Source: Pecten maximus (Eukaryota). From it: a stretch of 64,000 nucleotides of DNA. Below, piece after piece: positions 46,951 through 64,000 of the stretch. The notes beneath the pieces are model-generated. The model was not told the origin of the DNA. It was given only the letters and a program-made list of their open reading frames with translations, and ran no database searches. The position numbers were made by a program, and so were the translations under genes. The stretch is from assembly GCF_902652985.1 (NCBI RefSeq), contig NC_047019.1, positions 15,748,001 to 15,812,000 on the forward strand, written 5' to 3'. Numbering within the stretch: the first letter of the stretch is position 1; the number at the start of each line of letters is the position of its first letter.

Positions 46951-47040
46951 CTCATAGATTAATATCAGTTGGTAGAACTTGTTTGGCGATTGTTTTAAAA
47001 TTAAAGAAGTCAACACCCTAGTTTGAGAATGAGACTTTTC

Positions 47041-47395
47041 CCTTGATTTGTATGGCGGGTGTCGCCGTGACCTAGCTTGATATGGCGGGTGTCGTCGTGA
47101 CCTAGATTTGTATGGCGGGTGTCGTCGTGACCTAGATTTGTATGGCGGGTGTCGCCGTGACCTAGCTTTATATGGCGGGTGTCGTCGTGACCTAGATTTG
47201 TATGACGGGTGTCGTCGTGACCTAGATTTATATGGCCGGTGTCGTCGTGACCTAGATTTGTATGGCGGGTTTCGTCGTGTCCTAGATCTGTAGGCGGGTG
47301 TCGTCGTGACCTAGATTGTATGGCGGGTTTCGTCGTGACCTAGATTTGTGTGGCGGGTTTCGTCGTGTCCTAGATTTGTATTGCGGATGTCGTCG
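47041..47395. repeat. 30-bp GC-rich minisatellite x ~12
   Basis: Unit tatggcgggtgtcgtcgtgacctagatttg. Confidence 0.95.
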
Positions 47396-47550
47396 ATGAA
47401 GCAAAAGACGTATACACGCTTAGTCTTATTCTTCAAATAATTCAGAATGATGTCCATACATGTATGTTCCTTCGTTTTATAAATTAAGTTCGAGTAAGTG
47501 ATACGGTCTCGTTTTAATGTCGGTATTCTCTGTTGTTTAATTAATAATAT

Positions 47551-47798
47551 TGTTACGAAAATATGTGTATTATTAGTCTACTGTTAGTGTTAGATCAGCT
47601 GATTGTAGCTCGCTATCTAAATTGTTGTTTTACTAATTATTTATTAAGTATTTACGCTATTCCTATGTATTATATCTAGGATAGTATCTAAACCTTGTTA
47701 TAACAACAATCGCTAGGTCATATTTACGTCTAAGTATCCTCTAATGCTGTCAGAAGTGATTTAATACGTCCTCTTCTGGGCGCTGACATCTTTGTCTA
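47551..47798 (+). repeat. Gypsy A 5' LTR, left part
   Basis: Matches 60895-~61136 (tgttacgaaaat...ctgacatct). Confidence 0.93.
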
Positions 47799-48203
47799 TA
47801 AAGTAACGTTGCTGTCTTACTACAAGCTAGTTACCTCGCTGTAGAGCACGTGGAATGGTTCACTATGGAAGTCACTGTACATTTAATATGTATATCACCA
47901 CGGGTCGCTGGACAGGTCAGGATAAGGTGATGATATAGCAGTCGAAAACATGTCCAATAGAATATACTGGCTTAGTGTCCTAGCTAAAAGCCCAGAGCAC
48001 TAAGGAAACTGGCACTACTAACGTAGAAAATACTGGCTCCGTTAAAAACAGAGGACGTCTTACACACGTGTGGTCCCGCGGCCGACCAGGTGTGAGCAGA
48101 CGCTTACACGGTTCACGGGGTTGATCTTTATCTGACACGGGCCAGTTGACCGTCACGCACTTCCGGCGTAAACATTCAGGTCAACTCGGCCCGAGACACT
48201 ACA

Positions 48204-50830
48204 TTCCTCCGAACTTTATAATGAAAGTCCTTGATGGTCAGAGGCTTCGTAATGGTAATATAAAGATCTTCCGAGTCCTGATCAAATTCCTATATAAATT
48301 GACTCTGCACACTAAAACCGTTGTGATGAAGTCACTCTGGGTACTACTGGTGTTTGGTTCCTCCAAAATGGAGGAATAAGTAGGGATAAAATCCCTTGCA
48401 GTAAAATCATGGATTAAGGTGTGGATTGTCTCTAATCACACACAACCCTGTAAAATACATGGGTGTAATCCTGACCTTGATGGCAATGATATGATAAAAC
48501 ACACCATCTGAGTTTACAAACTTTTCTATTCCACCAGTAGTACTTAGCTTCTGCGGAGGCTAGAAATAGCTCTCCTTGTCCAGGTTCTGATCCATGCAGT
48601 AGATATTTCCGGAGAAACTGGAGGTCTGTATCTTTTTCTTGTTCATCTTCGAGTTCACGGTAAGTGAACCCCCAACAAGATGGCACATTTCCTAACCTGG
48701 AGCTGGTTGTCTAGAAGCTCATATCGAAACTTGATCTATCCGTGTGATCTGTCATCTTTAAGTCGTCTGTCATGTCTACCACAATCAGGATGTGGATAGT
48801 CAAGGAAAACCGAGGAAGCCCTATTTACCTGATGACTCCCCGGAGTTTGACTCGCAGAAGGTGGTTGGCCAATACAAATGGCCCTGTCATCTTTAAGCCG
48901 ACTGTCATGGCTACCGCAATCAGGGTGTGGATAACTAAGGAAAACCGGAGTAGCCCTATTTACCTGATGACTACCCGGAGTTTGACTTGCAGAAGGGGGT
49001 TGGGTCGAACTGGCATCTTTAAGTCCACTGTCATGGCTACCACAATCAGGGTGAGGATAACCAAGGAAAACCGGAGTAGCCCTATTTACCTGATGACTAC
49101 CCGGAGTTTGACTCTCAGAAGATATTTTACTGGCATGCATGTTCAGGGGACACTCAAGGAAACTGGTAGGCTTATTTTCTATACCGGCAGAGTTACACAC
49201 GGAACCAGCCGTGGCACTTTCGTACGGGCGTTGATCGCTAGCAGGAAGACTGTCATGAGTACCTTGACATGCAAGATAGCTGTCATGTTCACCTGGAGGG
49301 TGAACAAGGTAACTCTAACCACTCAAGAATGAATTGACCCCTGGCATGAGTGTCGAGTTGATTGTCCATTTAGGAGGCTCTATAGGGTTAGAGTCCCCTA
49401 ACCGGCCTTGCGGATTCGCTAATGTGGCCACATTATTGGTACCTATAAGGTACCCCTTATCACCGCAAGTATTACTTCCCGTCAGGGCGGTTACGTCGTC
49501 TACTTCCAGTGAGAATTCGCCCCACTGTCTGTCAGCACGCTTCAAAATAACTGCAGCCTCCACAGGGCAAGTTTTCAGGCTTGATTCCAGCTATGTACGA
49601 TGGGCATGGAGTCAGTTCATCCGGGATTCTGGATAGCGCGTCCGCATTTCCATGTTTGGTTCCGGGTCTGTGCTTCACAATCATATGGTATTGAGAAAGG
49701 TCTTCCATCCATCGTGCAAGCTGTCCCTGCGGCTCCTTAAATCGTAACAGCCATGTTAGACTTGAATGGTCCGTCCTGACGGTAAACTGTCTACCTTAAA
49801 GGTAGTATTTAAACTGTCATGTAAATCTCACAATACTAAGCAGTTCCTTCCGAGTGGTGTAGTATCCTTTGTTCGGTTGTAAGAGGGAAACTGCTAAAAG
49901 CAGTGACTCTCTCAACCCTGTCTTGTACTTGATTCAACACCTCTCCAATTGCTACATCCGAGGCATCTCTAAGATGAATGGATCCTTATTTAGTATCGGG
50001 CAACGCTAAGATGGGAGGTTCTGTCAGCGCCTTCTTCTGTCTCTCGAAGGCCTGTTGCTGTTCCATGTCCCAATGAAATTTGTTCTTTCCTGTGAGATTA
50101 TACAAGGGTTGAGCTAACTCGGCGAAATCCTTGATAAAGGTACGGTGATAATTCACCTATCCGAGAAACCGCTCCATATCTTTAGAGGACGCTGGTAAAG
50201 GGCAATTAGCTACCGTATTGGTGTCTGTTTCCGACATCGCTATTTGGTCCTTCCCGACTATTCCACCTAAAAACTTGACTTCCGGTTGGAAAAGTAGACA
50301 CTTTTTTGGTCATGTTGTCTGAATCTTTCCAACGTTTCTCTCAAATTATCGAGGTGTTCCCTGAAGGTGTGTCCTAATGCTAGGATGTCGTCCAAAAAGA
50401 ACTGTTTTCCAGGGGAGACCCCATAAGACGAGATTCATTGCACGAGAAAATGTGGCGGGAGCGTTAGTCAGACCAAAACCCATACGAACATGTTCGGTAA
50501 TGGAAAGGTGTCCTTAACAGTGACATAATTGAGCGCCCTGTAATCACTACACCAACGCATTGAGCCGTCCTTTTGTCCAACAAATACAGGTGCCGGCGCC
50601 CACTCCGACATGGACTCCTGGATGACACCTGCGTCCAGCATTTTCTTAAGATGCGCCTCCTCCTCCCCGGCTAATGATGCTGGCGTACGCCGCATTCGCT
50701 GTTTTACAGGCTTGGCGTCGCTGGTGTCCACTGCATGCTCAATTTTGTCAAAAATCCCGAGATCAAATTCATTCTTAGCGAAAACGTCCGAATAATGACG
50801 GAGAAGTTCAACTAAGTCCTTATACTGTGG
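48204..50830 (-). pseudogene. Degraded pol (RT-RNaseH-linker-partial IN) of Gypsy B
   Basis: ORF fragments 50468-50731, 49315-49563, 48736-49200 and 48432-48686 (ELEDEQEKDTDL..YYW), with several stops and frameshifts. Confidence 0.85.
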
Positions 50831-51579
50831 AGATGCTCGGGTACCTTTCCAGTATATGACGAGGTTTTATTTTGGTCTGACTCGCCGACATTGCGACTTG
50901 TTATTCTATCATTTGTATGCCTCTGAATAGGTCTGGCGCTTATATCGGAGCGAATAAAATCCGCTGTTTCGGGTTAAAATAACCCCGAACCTCAAAAGCG
51001 TTAACTAGTATTTCCACTTTCTTATTATAATGGTCCTAAAACTGTCGCCTAAATTTACCAAACAAACGACGACTTAGTATTGGCATTACGAGCTGTACGG
51101 GATACTAGAAGATCCAGGTTCCCATTAGACTTACTGGAAAACAATTGGGTTGAATTTGTTTTTATTAAAAAAAAATAGGCATACAATAATCACAAAATTC
51201 CACCGTAAAAAATACTCCGTATTATAAAATAACACTGGAATATGTGGTTAAGAATAATGTTGTGCAATAAAATGATACAAAATTAATCCTCGTATTATAA
51301 AATAACACACGGGAACGGTATCATGAATCTGTGAACCCACGTGACTGCTGGCTGAGGAACAATTCGATAAAATCGTAATTGAAACCACAGAAAAATCAGG
51401 AAAACTGCGCGAAAATTGATAAACACAGGATTAAATGAATAAAGTGCATTAATTTATCAATTTCTAGCCAAGACTTCTGACACCATTAAAGTAACGTTGC
51501 TGTCTTACTACAAGCTAGTTACCTCGCTGTAGAGCACGTGGAATGGTTCACTATGGAAGTCACTGTACATCATGTATAT

Positions 51580-52442
51580 TAGCTGCGATAACGTAGCTCT
51601 GGACGACGGACGGACAATTTCTGACAGATGGTCGTCGTCAGAGCTACGATTCCCTCCCGTTGCTCGTAATGTAGCAAAACAGTGAACCTCGAAAATGCTA
51701 CAAATAGCGGATATCGTTTAATTTTGGAGTAATAGTTCGTATAATTAAACATTTCTAATACAATTTTGCAATGTATTAGCCTACCGTCTAATCTAGAAAT
51801 CTTTAATTCGCATATTCTGATATCTTACTGCTCGGAGTTGTCTCCGTGATCCGCCATGATACTTCTCGAAGAACTCTCGCGAGGATTCTAACCCAAATAT
51901 GGAACCCGTAATCCATATATGGATGAAGCTACTACGATAAATAAATACATAATCAGAGATATTTAACCACTCTTTTGTAACTCTTGTGAAGAAAGCGAAT
52001 CTTACTTTGCGTAATTAAATAATTTCAGAATGAATTGACCTTCCTTACCGAGATATATTACTCCGAATCTGTTTTTCTGTTGAAATCTCGCGTGAAACCT
52101 CATTAGCATCAATTTATTTTGATTTCCTTATAAGGAAATTGACCTTTACACTTGTATCAAAGATGGCGGTATGTTTGAACTGATATCTCCGTGTGTCTTG
52201 CTCGTTTTGGATTTTACTATTTATTGTCAAACATTTGAAGTAATGTGCAGGTTTGTTGCTTGAATATTCATAATAGATACCAGAATCATCAATTTACGTG
52301 TGTTTTTTTATCCGAGAAAAATTTTGCCACTGCTAATACTGCCCGATGTGAATCACATCGGGGCTTGCTACACTATCGGCAATGGGAGGGAATTCATACC
52401 CTGCCGGAGAGCAGTGTAGGCAGGGTATGAATATTCGTTCTA
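51580..52442. mobile_element. Non-autonomous DNA element with TAG...CTA ends and a 9-bp TSD (Academ-like), nested in the Gypsy B 5' LTR
   Basis: Absent from the sister LTR. TSD catgtatat at 51571-51579 and 52443-52451. Subterminal hairpins cgtagctct..gacgac / gtcgtc..agagctacg and ttcataccctgcc / ggcagggtatgaa. Confidence 0.8.
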
Positions 52443-52765
52443 CATGTATATCACCACGGATCGCTGGACAGGTCAGGATAAGGTGATGATATAGCAGTCG
52501 AATACATGTCCAATATAGAATATACCGGCTTAGTGTCCTAGCTAAAAGCCCAGAGCACTAAGGAAACTGGCACTACTTACGTAGAGAATACTGGCTCCGT
52601 AAAAAACGGAGGACGTCTTACACACGTGTGGTCCCGCGGCCGACCAGGTGTGAAGAGACGCTTACACGGTTCACGGGGTTGATCTTTATCCGACACGGGC
52701 CAGTTGACCGTCACGCACTTCCGGCGTAAACAATCAGGTCAACTCGGCCCGAGACACTACATTTA

Positions 52766-53462
52766 TCTGCCGCTGTGTTAAGCTACGTAAGTACATGTAT
52801 CTATCGCGTCGGGTAATTGGTCGGTCGGTTTTACGCTAGACCTCCGATGCGCATGTCTGTTGTCTCAGCAGTCGCATCGGGGAGTCTTCCTCCACTCCAG
52901 TCATCTGTGCGGCAGTATTATTGTTTCGCCAGATAGCAAGGTAATATTTTACCCCTTTGGAAGCTCCATAATTTTGTTAAATGTTTTAAATTGTTAAACG
53001 GCACCAGACACGTTACATTTATTAATAATTCATTTAAAGTATTATTTTTACTTCGTCTGCTAGGGGTTGCCCCTAGTAGAGCCCCGAATAGTCCCCCAAT
53101 CGGATGCCCCGAATGGGAGTGACGTATTAGGGGGATTTCCCCCAACATTCTCGGGGAAAGCCCTAAGTCCCCAACTTACGGTCCTCAACATTTAGGCCGA
53201 CCAGTGGCCCCGACTATATTATTTATGTAATCTGTACATACATATAAATACTACTTTAATATATAATAAACATTACACGATTATTTTATATAAATCGTTT
53301 GTTATTTCTTCATGAAATTCGGATTGACCTACTAGGACGAGGAAACTTTGTTTACACCGTTCATTGTTTACTTTCCTCCTCCCAGTGACATCTAGGAGAT
53401 TACAAACTCATTATTGTCTGCAGCGCCTCAGGGCTAGGTTCTAGACCCCGTAAAATGCAGCA
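52766..53462 (+). repeat. Gypsy A 5' LTR, right part
   Basis: Matches ~61137-61867 and ends aaaatgcagca. Confidence 0.93.
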
Positions 53463-53464
53463 AT

Positions 53465-53479
53465 TGGTGGCAGCGATGG
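53465..53479 (+). other. Primer-binding site of Gypsy A (tRNA-Leu-like)
   Basis: TGGTGGCAGCGATGG, 2 nt after the LTR, complementary to the 3' end of tRNA-Leu (...CCACCGCUGCCACCA) with one mismatch. Confidence 0.85.
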
Positions 53480-53617: not shown

Positions 53618-54616
53618 ATGGATGGGTCTGGGACTGTAAGTTTCCCTAATTTACACAATGGAGAGTTTTATGAGACTGTTGATGAGACAGATTCTTTAAA
53701 TGCAAGTCTTGATCATAATTATGATCAGAGTGAAGCTTCTCACTCCAATGGAGGTTTAGCTGGTATTGAACTGATGAATCAATTAAAGTCATTTGTTAAT
53801 GATGCAAAAGATCAGTTTGATGAAATTCAGTCCAGTATGACTGAAATGATGAAAAAACAGCTGTCTGAATTTGAAAAAGATATGGACAATATTCGTAGAA
53901 AGAAAACTTCTGTTTTCTGCAAAGACACTGATTCGAAAATGCAAAATTCTTCTCATCAGTCTCAACAGAACTCGCCACAGGTTAATTCTTCAGAGGTAAG
54001 CAGAAGTTTTGTTGTAGAACATGGTGTTGATAGAAATACAAACCGGCATGGCACCCATGAAATGTCAAATAGCACTCCACAAGGTGTTCGGGCACAAATA
54101 CATACTGATCTCAATAATGCTCAGAACAATGAGCCTTATATTAACTTTGGTTCACATGTAAGCCATAGAACAGAGAGACCTAGTGCCTCTGTGAAAAGTG
54201 TTTTGAAACCACAATCATATGATGGTAGAGATGATCTTGAAGATTATCTAACTCAATTTCAAATATTGTCTGAAATTAACAATTGGAGTTACCCTGTCAA
54301 GTCACTGTATTTGGCAGGTAGTTTGAAAGGTTCTGCTCGTGCATTACTTAGTGAGTTATCCTCAGCTCAGCAACGAGACTATGATAGCTTAGTACATGCA
54401 CTCAACAGTCGTTATGGATCTGCGAACAAAGCAGAGGTATTCAGAGCACAGTTACAAAGTAGAGTTAAAGGGAAGAATGAGACCATTCCAGATTTAGCTC
54501 AAGCAATAAAGAAACTTACAAGACAGGCATATCCTTTAGCACCATCATCTGTCATTGATGTTTTGTCACTGGATCATTTTATTGATTCTATCAAATGTCA
54601 CAATAATGAAACCTGA
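53618..54616 (+). CDS. gag: Gag of Gypsy A (C-terminally deleted)
   Basis: KPQSYDGRDDLEDYLTQF..NNW..LAGSLKGSA..L..RYG..FRAQLQSR..ETI..LTRQAYP..HFIDS. No zinc knuckle is visible. Confidence 0.85.
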   Translation: MDGSGTVSFPNLHNGEFYETVDETDSLNASLDHNYDQSEASHSNGGLAGIELMNQLKSFVNDAKDQFDEIQSSMTEMMKKQLSEFEKDMDNIRRKKTSVFCKDTDSKMQNSSHQSQQNSPQVNSSEVSRSFVVEHGVDRNTNRHGTHEMSNSTPQGVRAQIHTDLNNAQNNEPYINFGSHVSHRTERPSASVKSVLKPQSYDGRDDLEDYLTQFQILSEINNWSYPVKSLYLAGSLKGSARALLSELSSAQQRDYDSLVHALNSRYGSANKAEVFRAQLQSRVKGKNETIPDLAQAIKKLTRQAYPLAPSSVIDVLSLDHFIDSIKCHNNET

Positions 54617-57600
54617 AGTTTTCAAGAAAATACCAAATATTTCTGATATAGAAGTGACAGATGTTAATTCAACACTTGTTACTGCGACTGGTGAGTCTTC
54701 TCCATTCTATAGGAAGGCAGATATGTTTATAGAAATAGGAAATCATAAAATGCAACATTGTGTGTTATTAGCAGACATTAAAAATGATGTCATATTGGGG
54801 GTGGATTTTATGGAGAAACATAAATGTGATGTATTGTTAAGCAAGAACTGCTTGTCAATAAATGGTCATAAAGTGCCATGCTTTCAGATATCAGACTCAA
54901 ATGTTCTTACATGTTGTAGAATAGCTATTGACCAAAAGGTGACTGTACCTCCCGAGGCTCAGATGATAATTCAAGGTAGACCAATTGATACCTTGTCTAG
55001 TGGAAAGAGTGGTGTATTAGAAACAGCTCCTTCATTTAATGAACGGAGTGGGTTGCTGGTAGCAAAATCATTAGTTGATCCCTGTAAAGGAGTGGTACCC
55101 ATACGGGTAATCAATCTATCTGAACAACCTCGGGTTATTCATAATTCTACCATGTTTGCTATGCAACGCCAGTTTTGATTAGTTTAAAACCATGTATTAC
55201 TTTCCAATAACCCACGCTCGTGCCAATAATACACAGTCGTGAGTCACGGCTGTTACAATTTTATATATCTAATATTCACCCCTTTTATAAAAGGTAACTA
55301 TAGCCGAGTGGGCTAATGGGTTAGTCTTTCAATTTATTTTTATCACGACGCGAGTTCGAATCCTACGGAGGCCCCCCCTTTTTTTTCTTTTTTTCTTCTT
55401 TTATTTTTATCCTTTTTTTTTTTAATTTTCAAAATCAATGCCATATAATTGATGCTTTTGATCATAGTACTGTATTGCCTGTATATTTCATCAACAAATA
55501 ATGCAATACTCAAGAAATAAATTACAAGGTTTTCTTGGGGTTTCTTTGCTGGTTTTCTATTAGAAAGAGGTCGATCTCAGAACTAAACAGTACATGGTAG
55601 AATAGAAATAATCAACTTTGACTCGTGTATTGTTGCAGGATATACAACTTGGAATCGGATATTTTGCAATTTTAATTAATAACTCAGGCCTGCGGCCTTC
55701 GTTATTAATTTAATTGCAAAATATCTTCGTCCTCGTTGTATATCCTGCAACAATACACGAATCATCGTTAATTATTTCTTAAATATACAGTAGCTGCAGT
55801 CAGTGAACAAGTAGATGAAGATATGGTGTTCAGAACTGAAAATATCAGGAATATCAATATTAATGAAACCAGTGATATTAAACAATGTGGAAAGAAATTG
55901 CCAAAACATTTGGTAAACATGTATACAAAGAGTAGTGAAAATCTTGACACTGAACAAAGAGAAAAACTTAAGCTGTTGTTGGAAAAACATCAACATTCTT
56001 TTCCCAAGTCATCTACTGATATTGGTTGCACTAACTTGGTTGAACATACAATTAATACTGGTAATGCTCCCCCTATCAAGCAGAGGCCAAGAAGGGTTCC
56101 TCTGGTAAAAATGAATGAGGCTGAGGCTGAAATAAAAGATATGGCTGAGAGTAATATCATTGAACCTTGCTCTGGTCCTTGGTGCTCTCCCACTGTTCTG
56201 GTCCGCAAAAAGGATAATAGTATCAGATTCTGTGTAGATTATAGAAAGTTGAATGATATCACAATCAAAGATTCTCATCCTCTACCTAGGATTGCTGATA
56301 CACTTGTGCCCTCTCTGGCTCACAGTGGTTCAGTACCTTCGACTTGAAATGTGGTTACTGGCAAGTGAAAATGGCTGAAAAAGACAAACCCAAAACAGCA
56401 TTTTCAATACAAGGTGGTGGATTCTGGCAGTTTAATGTCATGAGTTTTGGACTTTGTAATGCTCCAGCCACTTTTGAACATTTAATGGAACATGTTTTAA
56501 GTGGGTTATCATGGAAGACATGTCTAGTATACTTGGACAATATCATTGTTTTTGCAAAGTCATTTAATGAACAGTTAGAAAGACTAGATGAGGTTTTTAC
56601 CAGACTTCATGAAGCTGGTCTCAAGTTGAGTCCAAAGAAATGTACACTTTTTCAGAAAGAGGTTGACTTTCTAGGTCATATTGTTAGTGGAAAGGGTGTT
56701 TCTACAGACCCTAAGAAAATAGCTGCAGTGAAAGACTGGCCAGAACCAAAGAATGTGAAAGATGTTAGAAGCTTTCTTGGTATATGTTCGTATTATAGAC
56801 GTTTCGTACGAAACTTTGCAGATATTGCCAAACCTTTGCATCAGCAAACAGAAAAGGGTCGTCCATTTTCATCGACAGAGCCATATCAGAAAGCTTTTGA
56901 CACATTAAAAACTGCTTTGACAACTTCTCCGATACTGGGATACCCAACATCTGAGGGTCCTTTCATAGTTGATACTGATGCAAGCAATGAAGGCATGGGA
57001 GCAGTCCTGTCTCAAGTTCAAGGTGACACTGAAAAAGTGATTAGTTACTTTAGTAAAACATTCTCAAAAACAGAAAAGAAATACTGTGTAACTCGACGAG
57101 AATTGTTGGCTGTTTTGGCCTCAATCAAACATTTTCATCATTATCTATATGGGAGACAATTTCTCGTGAGGAGTGATCATGGTGCCTTGAGGTGGTTGTT
57201 AAATTTTAAGAACCCTGAGGGTCAAATAGCTCGATGGTTCGAGGTTCTCGCAACCTATGATTTCAAAATAGAACACAGAGCTGGTCGTTTGAATTCTAAT
57301 GCAGATGCCCTTTCTAGAAGACCATGTTTTGAAAAAAAACTGTGGACACTGCACTCGTGCAGAAGCCAAAGAACAATTACAGTCAGGGGAGACAACTCAT
57401 ACACAGCTGTGTAATAGTGTTGAGTTAGTAGAGTCAGAACATCCTATTCAGGAAGTAGAGCTAGAATGTAATGGAAATAAAACAAATGAGGTGAATATTT
57501 CACCAGCTATACTTGCTACGAGGACCTCTCAAGATAGCATGGTTGATCAGAGTATTGTAGAATTTGTAACCTTTGACTTTAAGGGTTCTACTAACACTGA

Positions 57601-59178
57601 TTATCACCATGGAGAGGCAGCGGGTGGTGAAATTAGTCAGCAGAATATGGGCGATGTCATATCGCAAGAACCAAATTCATGTTGCAAAGGAAGTTGTCCT
57701 GATTCTCTCCAAACATCTCCAGATATTACTCTGGATTCTATTAATGACACAGAATCATCTAGTGATGACTCGTGTAATGTACATGTTTGCACTAGGCAAA
57801 GATCGAAACTTGAAAAAGGAGAGACAATAGATGACCAAACCCTTGGTTCATCAAAACAAACTCCACAGAATATAGATACCGATACAACAGGAAATTGTCC
57901 TGAACTGAACAGTTTGACAGATTTGAGAGAGTCTCAGTTATGTGATCCAGATATAAGTATTGTATACCATTGGAAAGAGAAAAATGAAAGACCATCATGG
58001 TCGTCTGTTTACTCTCATAGTGAGGCAGAGAAATTTTACTGGTTTAGATGGGATTCACTGCATCTACGGAATGAGATATTGTATAGGAAATGGGAAACAA
58101 ATGATGGTAAATCATGTATTTGGCAAGTGGTTCTACCACTGAAGCACAGACCTTTTGTACTTAAACAACTGCATGACAGTGTTACAGGTGGCCAGAACGT
58201 GGTTTACGTAAAGATGTCACCTTATGGTGTCGAATGTGTGATTCCTGTGCTGCAGGGAAAAGGCGAGGCAAAGTGCCACATGCCACCTTGCAAAAATATG
58301 GTGCTGGTGCACCAATGGAAAGGATAGCTGTGGATATATTAGGTCCACTTCCACGCAGTAGGAAAGGTAACAAATACCTTCTTGTTGTAGGTGATTATTT
58401 CACCAAGTGGGTTGATGCGTTTCCAGTTCCCAATGAAGAGGCTATTACAATAGCCAAAAAGTTAGTAGAAAGAGTGTTTTGTGTATTTGGAGTGCCAATG
58501 CAACTCCACACAGATAGGGGAACTAATTTTGAATCGCACCTATTTAAGGAAATGTGTCAGATCATGGGTATAGATAAGACTAGAATGACAGCTTATCGTC
58601 CCCAATCTGATGACATGGTAGAAAGAGCCAATCAAACGATTGTAAATATGTTGAGAAACTTTATTTCGAAAAATCAAACCGATTGGGATGAGTATATTCC
58701 TATGCTGATGACGGCCTACAGGTCCTCAGAGCATGAAGCCACAGGATTTAGTCCTTGCACACTGATGCTTGGAAGGGAGATCAATCTTCCTGTAGATCTA
58801 TGTTATGGCAGTCCTACGAAAGAGAATTATACAAATAAAACATCAGAGTACACTAGAAATATGTTAGATCACTTACTGAAAGTACATGAAGTGGCTAGAC
58901 AAAACCTGAATTTGTCACACACTAGAATGAAGAAACAGTACGACAGTAAAAGTAAACAATCTACACATAATAGAGGTGACTTAGTCTGGTTATACAATCC
59001 TGCAAGACATGTAGGTAAATGCCAGAAATTACAAAACTTATGGCATGGACCATATACTGTTACTGACGCTCTGAATGACGTCATATACCAAGAGACACCT
59101 AGGTCAAAACCTAAGGTAGTCCATCATGATAATTTAAAACCCTACCAAGGTGATACAGCAAAACACTGGTTGAAATGA
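54590..59178 (+). pseudogene. pol: Pol of Gypsy A (partial PR, RT, RNase H, long linker, integrase), frameshifted and interrupted
   Basis: ILGVDF (PR); PIKQRPRRVP, RFCVDYRKLN, FGLCNAPATF and YLDNI (RT, second Asp is Asn); DTDAS..ELLA..DHGAL (RH); DILGPLP..DYFTKW..TDRG..VERAN (IN) and a GPY motif. Several frameshifts and an insertion near 55143-55780. Confidence 0.92.
55143..55780. mobile_element. ~640-bp non-autonomous element inserted in Gypsy A pol, with tRNA-like Pol III boxes and a terminal hairpin
   Basis: Removing it rejoins RVIH-KYTVAAVSEQ in frame. A-box TAGCCGAGTGG at 55301, B-box GAGTTCGAATCC at 55352, T-run near 55379, hairpin at 55623-55760. Confidence 0.8.
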
Positions 59179-59580
59179 TATGAAATTGTTGTGTTGAACA
59201 ATTTTCACTTTCTTAATTGTGTTTAAAAGTTTTGTTTTATTAAATTTGTTGTTATGAGACACTATTCAATTACAATTACCTGAAAACAGGTGAATAAGTG
59301 TGATAAAAAGTTCACATGAACTTGATTTAAAATATAATGTGAATGAACATCACAGTTAGTTGTCAGGAGTTTTAATACTCAAGCAGCTTATATTGCTTAA
59401 TTGTCAAATCAATATTGTATATACTATACTATGGAGCAGATCCATACTAATGATAATGAGTATTTCCCTGTAATCAGATAAATATGTACTGTAAAACTAC
59501 ATATAATGGTATACATTGTATGAAAATTCCTATGTCTTAAGGAAAATATATAACTTACCCAGTCCCTCATCATCTTTCAG

Positions 59581-59988
59581 ATGAGACTTAAGTGCACCTT
59601 GTGCCCTCTCAAAACTTTCACAAAGATGGACCATGCCCGGCGCCATCTCCTGGAGCAGCACTCCATGTTGGGATACATGTGCCCAGTATGCCAAAGGACA
59701 TTCAATCGTCCATATGCCAACCAGGAGGGTTGCCGCAATGGCATCAAGCCTGCCAACTTGATTTTGTACTGCCGCCAGACGGGGAAACAAGGAGCAGAGG
59801 CGGGTGCCCTTTTGGAGGCATTCCGTAGACGCATACCATCTTTAAAAGCTAAGGAGCCAGAGGAGTTCCCAAAGTTTCCACAGCCAGTAACCAATCAGGA
59901 GATCACACCAGCCAAACGCCCTAGGACATGCACGGACCTTGAAGACATCCTTGAAAAAATTAGATATTTTGTGTTAGATCTAGGCTAA
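59581..59988 (+). CDS. Accessory ORF of Gypsy A: 135-aa C2H2 zinc-finger protein with NLS-like motif
   Basis: GC-rich island between the integrase stop and the PPT, with an acceptor ctcatcatctttcag directly before the ATG. Motifs CTLC-x13-H-x4-H, CPVCQRTFNR....C and PAKRPR. Confidence 0.7.
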   Translation: MRLKCTLCPLKTFTKMDHARRHLLEQHSMLGYMCPVCQRTFNRPYANQEGCRNGIKPANLILYCRQTGKQGAEAGALLEAFRRRIPSLKAKEPEEFPKFPQPVTNQEITPAKRPRTCTDLEDILEKIRYFVLDLG

Positions 59989-60894
59989 ACAGTTACATTT
60001 GGAGATACATACTGTACATATTTTTGGGAATTTTAGATTTAGATATTAGTCATATTGTAACATCTGGGATAGTCGGGGGATATTAAACTATACATAACAG
60101 GTTTAAACTACATTGTAAGCTACTCTGTTGTTATGTTAACTTACAGTACCTGTTATTAGAAATTCATTTGTTTTCTTAAATTCTTATGCTTGTCATAATA
60201 GTTTTATATATCTTGAAGTTGTGTTATTGTTAATTAACTTATTATCAGGAATGGGCAGAACATGTATTGAATACAACCTGTTCTTGTAAAAGTGTTATAT
60301 ATTAATTTAACTGTAATTTAAGAGTTCCAATGCTATTTTCTCTTAAACAGTTGAAGATATTAAATATCATTTGTTGTTAATGTTACACTATGCAATTGTA
60401 AACAGTTGGATAGTATCTATAGTAGTATCGAGATGTTATTGTTTGGTACTACAATGTTATTGTTATTGGTTAATTGATATTATTCGCAGCTACTGAAACA
60501 TTCAGTATTAACATTTTATCAATAGTAATGCTCTTTACATTATTGAATTTAATTATAATCAATGATATTGTTATTACAGTTGAAATTGAAGTGATCAAAG
60601 TTGTGTTCTAATATAAAGTTAAATGCTTCAATTTCCATATGTCCATCACTGCGTGACATTCATGGCAATGTTGTTACTGTAAGAAGATTTATGACAGTTT
60701 TTAAATATTCGTGTCTTATTTTGTCTCGGAAGACATTACATGCTATTAAATGTTATGCGAGTGTCGAGTCACGGATTCTTATAGGGCATACCTGTCGTAT
60801 GTACATCCATTATCGTTTTATAGGTAGATATTTTCGTCGTTATCTTATTATCCTCTTTAATTTGGAGACCAAATGTTGTCTAGGAGGAGGGCAG

Positions 60895-61867
60895 TGTTAC
60901 GAAAATGTGTGTATTGTTAGTCTACTGTTACAGTAGTGTTAGATCAGCTGATTGTAGCTCGCTATCTAAATTGTTGTTTTACTAAGTATTTACGCTATTC
61001 CTATGTATTAAATCTAGGATAGTATCTAAGCTTTGTTATAACAGCAATCGCTAGGTCATATTTACGTCTAAGTATCCTCTAATGCTGTCAGAAGTGATTT
61101 AATACGTCCTCTTCTGGGCGCTGACATCTCTGTTTATCTGCCGCTGTGTTAAGCTATGGAAGTACATACGTAGGATATCATTGGTTGATTGTATCTATCG
61201 CGTCGGGTCATTGGTCGGTCGGTTTTACGCTAGACCTCCGATGCGCATGTCTGTTGTCTCAGCAGTCGCATCGGGGAGTCTTCCTCCACTCCAGTCATCT
61301 GTGCGGCAGTATTATTGTTTCGCCAGATAGCAAGGTAATATTTTACCACTTTGGAAGCTCCATAATTTTGTTACATGTTTTAAATTGTTAAACGGCACCA
61401 GACACGTTACATTTATTAATAATTCATTTAAAGTATTATTTTTACTTCGTCTGCTAGGGGTTGCCCCGAGTAGCCCCAAGTAGGCCGAATAGTCCCCCAA
61501 TCGGATGCCCCGAATGGGAGTGACGTATTAGGAGGATTTCCCCCCAACATTCTCGGGGAAAGCCCCAAGTCCCCAACTTACGGTCCCCAACATTTATGCC
61601 GACCAGTGGCCCCGACTATATTATTTATGTAATCTGTACATACATATAAATACTAGATCTACTTTAATATATAATAAACATAACACGATTATTCTATATA
61701 AATCGTTTGTTATTTCTTTATGAAATTCGGATTGACCTGGGACGAGGAAACTTTGTTTACTTCGTTCATTGTTTACTTTCCTCCTCCCAGTGACATCTAG
61801 GAGATTACGAACTCATTATTGTCTGCAGCGCCTCAGGGCTAGTTTCTAGACCCCGTAAAATGCAGCA
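60895..61867 (+). repeat. Gypsy A 3' LTR (973 bp), uninterrupted
   Basis: Starts TGTTAC after the PPT taggaggagggcag, ends GCAGCA, and is followed by TSD atat. Confidence 0.95.
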
Positions 61868-62158
61868 ATATGTCAATATTGTATTACCTGATATTCCACC
61901 AAATATGTTCATCAAATCCCGTCATTTCTCATCTCTGTTTCTGTACAAAACATATGTGAGTAAACTGTATATACTCCACAGACGAGGCTAACATTCATGA
62001 AGAAAACCAAGAAAGTCTTCAGTGTAGCAGACCTTCCTAGCAGCAGGACGGAACAACTGAACGGTCAAGCGACCGCCAATCACCCAAGGGACACATTACT
62101 TTGTTATTGTTAGGAGGAGTTTCTAAGGATTTCAAATGAAAAATCTGCAAAGTAGATA

Positions 62159-62981: not shown

Positions 62982-63159
62982 CATTTGTATATACATTGTA
63001 CAGTGTCAGTCAGGACCAGACAAAAGTCTGGTTCCAATGTGGTTTCAAGGAAGCGATTGACGTTGACGCCTCCAGCCCTGAAGTCAATCAAGACAAAGAA
63101 CGCCACACCCTCTGCCGCCTATGCCAACCTTGTTCGTTCACCTGACTTTGATATATTTA

Positions 63160-63826
63160 ATTCCCAGTCATGAGACTTTGGGACAATTCCGAGTCGTGAG
63201 ACTTTGGGATAATTCCCAGTCATGAGACTTTGGGACAATTCCCAGTCATGAGACTTTGGGATAATTCCCAGTCATGAGACTTTGGGATAATTCCCAGTCA
63301 TGGGACTTTGGGATAATTCCCAGTCGTGAGACTTTGGGATAATTCCCAGTCGTGAGACTTTGGGATAATTCCGAGTCGTGAGACTTTGGGATAATTCCCA
63401 GTCATGAGACTTTGGGATAATTCCCAGTCGTGAGACTTTGGGATAATTCCGAGTCGTGAGACTTTGGGATAATTCCCAGTCACGAGACTTTGGGATAATT
63501 CCGAGTCGTGAGACTTTGGGATAATTCCCAGTCATGAGACTTTGGGATAATTCCCAGTCGTGAGACTTTGGGATAATTCCGAGTCGTGAGACTTTGGGAT
63601 AATTCCCAGTCACGAGACTTTGGGATAATTCCGAGTCATGAGACTTTGGGATAATTCCCAGTCATGAGACTTTGGGACAATTCCCAGTCATGGGACTTTG
63701 GGATAATTCCCAGTCATGGGACTTTGGGATAATTCCCAGTCATGGGACTTTGGGATAATTCCCAGTCATGATACTTTGGGATAATTCCGAGTCATGAGAC
63801 TTTGGGATAATTCCCAGTCATGAGAC
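63160..63826. repeat. 26-bp quasi-palindromic minisatellite x ~25
   Basis: Unit gagactttgggataattcccagtcat; three units give the 26-aa periodic ORFs in the track. Confidence 0.97.
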
Positions 63827-64000
63827 TGAAAACCGCTTAGCCTGTCCCCTGTCAGTAGGGCTGCAGAAATCGCCCGAATATCAGGCGAAATCTGTTTAAC
63901 AGGTATTTTCATAGCAAAAAACGACAGACATGTTTCAGTTAGGGGCTGCTGTGTTTCATTATCCATTTTTATTTTGATAAATAGTATCCTTATAAAATTT

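Follow-up and report, generated by a model that had tools for sequence, protein, structure and literature searches.

Regulatory accessory genes tend to be associated with complex retroviruses; foamy-virus Tas and HTLV Tax are transactivators. HTLV also produces antisense transcripts, and micropia a non-coding antisense RNA. The env gene of errantiviruses is a third ORF behind the integrase, expressed from spliced RNA. ZBTB transcription factors have an N-terminal, dimeric BTB domain and a C-terminal array of fingers joined by canonical linkers. In plants, LTR elements carry additional ORFs, including an extra gene between pol and the 3' LTR (PMC7264820, available text). Among the animal Gypsy examples we found, CERV of Cer1, a Ty3/Gypsy element of C. 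elegans, alone has been characterised; according to the available text, it is a non-env ORF at the env position, expressed from a spliced mRNA whose upstream exons are known and in the gag frame, with a Cys finger, a candidate NLS, flexible linkers, a ring predicted to have at least five subunits, and a regulatory role (PMC10309623).

The gene described here, ORF3, is by description similar to CERV in its position, Cys finger, candidate NLS and flexible linkers, as well as in its proposed multimeric state and regulatory role. Unlike CERV, it is built from a C2H2/C2HC finger pair and a host-type BTB domain, and its splice donor was not found. ORF3 also resembles errantivirus env in lying behind the integrase with a splice acceptor, here a sequence signal only. 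It differs from env in lacking a hydrophobic segment in 23 of 23 proteins (hydropathy scan, maximum 1.52), and no env domain was matched in Pfam by the window, sister or wider ORF3 proteins. Full-length ORF3 shares a BTB_2 domain with the KCTD proteins (KCTD5/17/9 and KCTD1/15). These are host genes with an N-terminal BTB followed by a substrate domain, whereas the ORF3 BTB is C-terminal, behind fingers, and resides in Gypsy elements. ZBTB factors likewise combine BTB with C2H2 fingers, and the ORF3 finger pair resembles those of ZBTB20, ZBTB7A and HIC2; however, ORF3 has the reverse domain order, a potassium-channel-type BTB, two fingers only and a non-canonical linker. By these differences, ORF3 is an assembly independent of ZBTB.

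The window, the whole 64-kb stretch of scallop DNA analysed, contains a Ty3/Gypsy element in which ORF3 sits. It covers G000:C5:15748001-15812000, and proteins identical to parts of it are attributed to Pecten maximus. The element has paired LTRs (5', split, 47551–53462; 3', 60895–61867), a 4-bp target-site duplication (47547–47550, identical to 61868–61871) and a polypurine tract directly 5' of the 3' LTR (60882–60894). The two parts of the 5' LTR, 47551–47799 and 52762–53462, differ from the 3' LTR by 8 mismatches in 254 columns and 20 in 740, giving 28 mismatches over about 990 aligned columns for the pair. Between them is nested a second, broken LTR element on the minus strand (47800–52761), with its own repeats and a minus-strand pol-like ORF at 50468–50866. 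All parts of the main element lie on the plus strand. A primer-binding site-like motif is placed directly 3' of the LTR (53465–53478). The gag gene (53618–54616) is truncated and contains two candidate phase-0 donor-like sites (53636 and 53996), and pol (54540–59178) is frameshifted. The pol domains follow the order PR–RT–RNase H–IN, as they do in relatives, with RVT_1, RT_RNaseH, rve and Integrase_p58_C above the Pfam cut-off and a weak protease match (E 0.094). An insertion of ~600 bp between protease and RT (near 55180–55780) carries a 68-nt inverted repeat (55604–55779) and a T-rich run. The long spacer between RNase H and integrase (57293–58327) is partly acidic, has no Pfam match and is kept in sister copies. 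Tandem arrays of 26-bp and 30-bp units flank the element (63028–63951 and 47011–47428), and no tRNA was found in the 64-kb window.

The original prediction described an intact zinc-finger gene in the env position of a damaged element, and most of its observations were reproduced. The ORF spans 135 codons (59581–59988) between the integrase stop at 59178 and the polypurine tract, has a GC content of 0.53 (59600–59899) against 0.26 and 0.28 in its flanks, and lies in an element whose gag–pol is broken into six ORF pieces. It encodes the predicted C2H2 finger (finger 1, 59593–59661) and a KRPR basic motif (59914–59925), a candidate NLS of which similar versions occur elsewhere in the proteins of relatives. 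It has no hydrophobic segment (maximum 19-residue hydropathy 0.29). Its ATG is immediately preceded by a pyrimidine tract and CAG (59563–59580), the sole strong plus-strand acceptor in the 7.4-kb internal region by our filter. The gene is not intact, however. A deletion of ~404 bp has its junction at 59955–59957, where four of four aligned sister copies hold ~404 more bases; in these copies (L014–L017) the additional bases code for the remainder of the linker and for a BTB_2 domain. Accordingly, the window copy has no Pfam match to BTB_2, the true ORF3 remnant (59581–59955) comprises the finger module and the first part of the linker, and the final 8 residues (59956–59988) are an out-of-frame reading up to a stop codon. 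The second finger (59680–59733) had been called degenerate. For the family this does not hold, as finger 2 is a C2HC finger with four ligands invariant in 10 of 10 aligned families; in the window copy, the ligand position at residue 48 is substituted. The window ORF is more than a chance open frame, given its low dN/dS against four sisters (below); it is a truncated remnant, the front half of a real third gene of many mollusc elements. A protein search of the 918-Mb scallop genome (13 matches) revealed at least five window-family copies with fingers, and since none of the five has a fully open ORF3, the window family looks dead in this assembly.

The full plan of ORF3 is seen in divergent relatives, where an N-terminal finger module is followed by a variable linker and a C-terminal BTB domain. 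Its length ranges from 336 codons (L018 and L019) to 505 (L021). An AlphaFold model of the L018 protein, from a sister family, shows two confident domains and a disordered middle, and the finger module modelled alone reaches a pLDDT of 90. With one row per family, all eight zinc ligands (C2H2, then C2HC) and two arginines are invariant across 10 families at 27–48% identity. One arginine sits at helix position +6 of finger 1 and the other at −1 of finger 2, which we take to be usual guanine-reading positions; the second aligns with an arginine of the Aart fingers. Most of the top structural neighbours of the module are DNA-bound finger pairs, at only Z 3–4. Fold searches with the module yielded generic matches only (best Z 5.6), and no viral match at E ≤ 0.001. 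A K-K/R-x-K/R motif, the candidate NLS, is present in 18 of 23 ORF3 proteins, at varying places, and missing in the other five. In the Atlas, the window ORF falls into unnamed clusters at 0.94, and scans of metagenome and viral contigs returned no relatives of ORF3.

The BTB_2 (T1-type) domain scores above the Pfam cut-off in full-length relatives. Among solved BTBs, KCTD17 is closest by sequence (E 4e-12), followed by KCTD5 and KCTD9. The fold matches isolated BTB domains with a target TM of 0.81–0.85, and KCTD1 and KCTD15 are among the closest folds, while sequence likeness is greater to KCTD17/5 than to KCTD1/15. Complex prediction of two L018 BTB domains with residues 15–152 of scallop Cullin-3 gave a score of 0.01 in a run that, unlike the calibration run, did not use alignments, and it speaks neither for nor against binding.

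To determine how far the gene is linked to Gypsy elements, we searched the scallop genome for Pfam BTB_2 (99 matches) and examined 87 loci (88 matches) together with L020, leaving out 11 matches; loci L063–L101 were read with only 3.5 kb of upstream sequence. The finger module is present at 38 of the 88 loci, all with the BTB domain. In 33 of these 38, an integrase on the same strand lies no more than 1.1 kb upstream; at L050 the distance is 6.3 kb, and the remaining four show no integrase. Among the 50 finger-less loci, only one has an integrase, and it is a window-family copy that carries a deletion; the remainder are host genes of the KCTD or channel type, or fragments of elements. Several carriers are recent, the two LTRs of L018 differing at 1 base in 1514. 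The same family groups appear in the integrase tree and in the finger tree of 21 copies, with a deep split that is weak in the finger tree. In the BTB tree, element BTBs stand apart from 20 host rows (100/98), and nine other host-like rows fall within the element clade. We can only infer a single capture of the domain, because host KCTD-like rows share its clade and the tree has few columns. A tandem array at G000:C12:31752958-31777407 (L049 and L050) holds five BTB matches that belong to a single family; four are spaced ~4.3 kb apart, and the unit is composed of the integrase end, ORF3 and flank.

The module extends beyond the scallop. A profile search listed 150 proteins, from which 44 new single-stretch matches were kept and multi-finger matches dropped; of the 44, 15 score at or above the BTB_2 cut-off and another lies slightly below it. 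Among the 20 that were looked up, the named carriers include three species of Mytilus, Crassostrea/Magallana, Pinctada and the gastropod Gigantopelta; a separate search added Argopecten. Three Mytilus gene models (P0049, P0126 and P0165) fuse integrase or pol to the finger module, which shows that their adjacency holds there too. Several element ORF3 proteins have been annotated as genes of the scallop or oyster host (P0009, P0171–P0173 and P0004), and the annotation names on ORF3 proteins include 'trichohyalin-like' and 'putative potassium channel regulatory protein'.

We examined 20 further integrase loci beyond the BTB_2 set, 13 of them outgroup. The module is present at three of the 20; a fourth is a window-family copy with gaps, a fifth yielded no usable match, and two are relatives without ORF3. 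The latter, L123 and L124, are near-identical, have an open 1332-codon pol and group near the BTB clade by integrase, indicating that ORF3 is dispensable in some lineages. In the outgroup, post-integrase ORFs with other tandem C2H2 fingers occur at L130, L132, L133, L135, L139, L140, L141 and L142, with a broken one at L134; L131 is a near-copy of L130, and L138 keeps the tail domain only. At the C-terminus, these ORFs have domains of two or more further types, without Pfam match. One, rich in Trp and Pro and matched in neither Pfam nor Atlas, is common to L133 (5875–6924), L139, L141 and L138, while L130, L132 (5026–6171) and L135 join two C2H2 fingers to a third type of C-terminal domain, also without Pfam match. 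Sister clades swap the BTB for unrelated domains and keep the fingers, which are the constant part. L136 (5673–6230) and L137 (5735–6262) have in common a post-integrase ORF of ~180 codons that is helical-looking and lacks fingers.

ORF3 moves together with its element and evolves under purifying selection. All 13 within-family pairs gave a module dN/dS of 0–0.41, and the BTB domain gave 0.04–0.42 in the 11 pairs with a measurable ratio (dS < 1.3); no pairwise ratio above 1 was found in ORF3. For the window finger module against four sisters, the values are 0.08, 0.07, 0.016 and 0.042, well below a value of about 1. In several pairs ORF3 shows more synonymous divergence than pol, and for the window against L014 dS is 0.32 in the finger module and 0.045–0.048 in RT/IN, a ~7-fold difference. 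L035 and L032 differ by 0.0–6.0% mismatches in gag–pol and 0.5–4.9% in the LTRs, compared to 28–37% in ORF3. This divergent ORF3 on a near-identical backbone shows that the gene was swapped as a cassette, by recombination. No divergence step at ORF3 was seen in the pairs L055/L037 and L022/L048.

A potential splice acceptor precedes the module throughout. In 13 of 13 families, the best YAG lying within 48 nt of the first Cys is in phase 0 and scores 9 or more pyrimidines out of 14, counts that are not fully independent because the families share ancestry. Among control windows, 40 of 195 hold such a site, and their phases are evenly distributed (11/13/16). An in-frame ATG before the first Cys is missing in nine of the 13 families, which would therefore need a coding exon further upstream. 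A conserved donor for it was not identified, as gag-start, leader and capsid-motif donors are not kept across 10 families; phase-0 gag donors exist in the window family and are not conserved. Conservation across many families and species, purifying selection and the in-frame acceptor together bear out the original view of an element-encoded accessory gene at the env position that is neither an env nor a one-off capture of a host gene.

Splicing was examined in contigs of four runs, X1–X4, presumed to be RNA, on L018:1-8615. No sense junction into the acceptor was seen in these contigs, where absence is not evidence of absence. Instead, X1 and X3 contigs cross the acceptor unspliced, joined by minus-strand introns, and seven of the eight listed joints, from X1, X3 and X4 (three studies), have the CT..AC ends of canonical minus-strand introns. 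L018, a recent Gypsy element, is thus crossed on the minus strand by a multiply spliced antisense RNA (L018:1338-8452; G000:C5:19724137-19731251) with at least six exons and an alternative exon. Contigs end at 1338–1342 in three runs and cover parts of ORF3 between splice sites 7947 and 6944. No start of this RNA was seen in the contigs on L018, and it may be driven from a host promoter. One antisense donor lies 22 nt before the ORF3 acceptor, in a motif that also resembles a sense branch point; this motif recurs in the window, equally far from the acceptor (59553–59558). The antisense RNA was rejected as a coding gene, its longest ATG ORF of 62 codons being no longer than the shuffle median of 63. 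It is in this respect like that of micropia. Compared with the additional ORFs and antisense RNAs known from other LTR elements, the ORF here is sense and the antisense RNA is multiply spliced along the entire element. Conservation of its splice sites was also discounted as support, since the AG/GT kept in other families fall within conserved codons. L018 has 15 strong acceptors on the minus strand against 4 on the plus strand, so that antisense splicing may be incidental to an A-rich plus strand.

What might ORF3 do? We tentatively favour, at somewhat less than an even chance, an oligomeric DNA-binding regulator, activator or anti-silencer, acting on element DNA. A subgenomic RNA would arise by splicing to the conserved phase-0 acceptor, joined in most families to a short coding exon further upstream, and the protein would enter the nucleus. 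Oligomerisation through the BTB is proposed to present several finger pairs at once, allowing the protein to bind the element's own DNA (LTR or provirus). Bound ORF3 may then recruit host factors, such as a Cullin-3 ligase or host KCTD partners, and perhaps keep the element transcribed. Such a mode would be comparable to that of Tas or Tax, built from a captured host domain. The mechanism is shaped by the KCTD-type BTB, a second domain that the original prediction had missed. The regulator reading is supported by the architecture, integrase linkage, selection, tree agreement and phase-0 acceptor, and the two invariant arginines at guanine-reading positions, with the DNA-bound finger pairs among the neighbours, favour DNA binding. 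It is weakened by the unseen sense junction, the lack of a conserved donor, the absence of the basic motif from 5 of 23 proteins, and the ORF3-free L123 and L124. Two short fingers with a non-canonical linker would also provide little specificity for the element's own DNA, and the divergent ORF3 of L032 and L035 would be as compatible with a target in the host as with one in the LTR. KCTD2/5/17 are pentameric Cul3 binders, but overall likeness between BTBs does not tell Cul3 binders from non-binders, which weakens the case for Cul3 recruitment by the element BTB (PMC10856315, available text).

Several other functions would use the same domains. The fingers could bind unspliced genomic RNA and the BTB ring multimerise, exporting intron-containing RNA in the manner of Rev or CERV. 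The available text on CERV describes a spliced, env-position ORF needed for gRNA export (PMC10309623), and an element with a strong internal acceptor faces the same export problem as Cer1. However, the invariant arginine positions suit DNA reading, and L123 and L124 manage without ORF3, though possibly also without the acceptor; we consider an export role fairly unlikely. ORF3 could instead be directed against the host. Vif and Vpx are viral proteins that hand host proteins to ligases for destruction, and ORF3 fingers may similarly grip a silencing or restriction protein that the BTB passes to a Cullin-3 ligase. That the nearest solved BTBs are those of Cul3 adaptors would agree with such counter-defence, as would the cassette exchange between L035 and L032 and the ~7-fold excess of dS in the finger module over RT/IN. 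It appears unlikely nonetheless, given that no pairwise dN/dS exceeds 1 and that the fingers, not the BTB, are constant across sister clades.

ORF3 might also restrain its own element by repressing the LTR and, with the spliced antisense RNA, limiting copy number. In favour of this, families are small, the window family having five or more finger-bearing copies. The RNA seen over parts of the L018 ORF3 is antisense, and KCTD1, which has a close fold, acts as a repressor (PMC7618933, available text). Yet the antisense splicing may be a by-product of base composition and the BTB sequence is nearer to KCTD17/5 than to KCTD1/15, leaving self-restraint distinctly unlikely. A tether, targeting integration or associated with the particle, that guides the integration complex to chosen DNA would account for the position next to integrase at 33 of 38 finger loci, the DNA-reading arginines and the oligomer domain. 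We judge it very unlikely, because ORF3 comes with an acceptor of its own and none of the genomic copies read shows it fused to pol. Finally, ORF3 could be a passenger, a captured host gene fragment without function for the element, as the broken ORF3 of all five window-family copies and the host-type family of the BTB might suggest. Selection largely refutes this: dN/dS is far below 1, the eight ligands are invariant at 27–48% identity, several mollusc genera carry the module, and no finger module was found at 49 loci without integrase. The chance that ORF3 is such a passenger is close to negligible.

Beyond the favoured regulator lies a wider picture, improbable as a whole, in which this mollusc Gypsy radiation consists of 'complex' retrotransposons. 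Their modular, exchangeable regulator would find the element's own DNA with the fingers and carry an effector domain of one of three or more kinds. In the BTB form, it would dock a host Cullin-3 ligase on the element's proviruses and so remove silencing proteins, and the overlapping spliced antisense RNA would switch the gene off, a Tax/HBZ-like circuit evolved independently of retroviruses.

In the available text of a review of additional ORFs (PMC7264820), neither 'zinc' nor 'BTB' occurs, and BTB and zinc terms are likewise absent from the main text, as available, of PMC13524379 and PMC6238403. We found no publication that describes a Gypsy element with a BTB or finger-BTB ORF, although supplements, Repbase or subscription journals may do so. 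Finger-BTB ORF3 is a real and widespread gene family, apparently undescribed so far. Accessory regulators of Gypsy elements are a known kind, within which the finger-BTB architecture is apparently new. To CERV, these results add a large, recently active mollusc clade with a conserved finger-BTB gene, and sister clades with related finger genes and other tails. Because 38 of the 88 examined loci, nearly all picked as BTB_2 matches, are transposon genes, counts of mollusc KCTD genes would be inflated. The clade provides a testable system for how lophotrochozoan transposons regulate themselves or counter host silencing.
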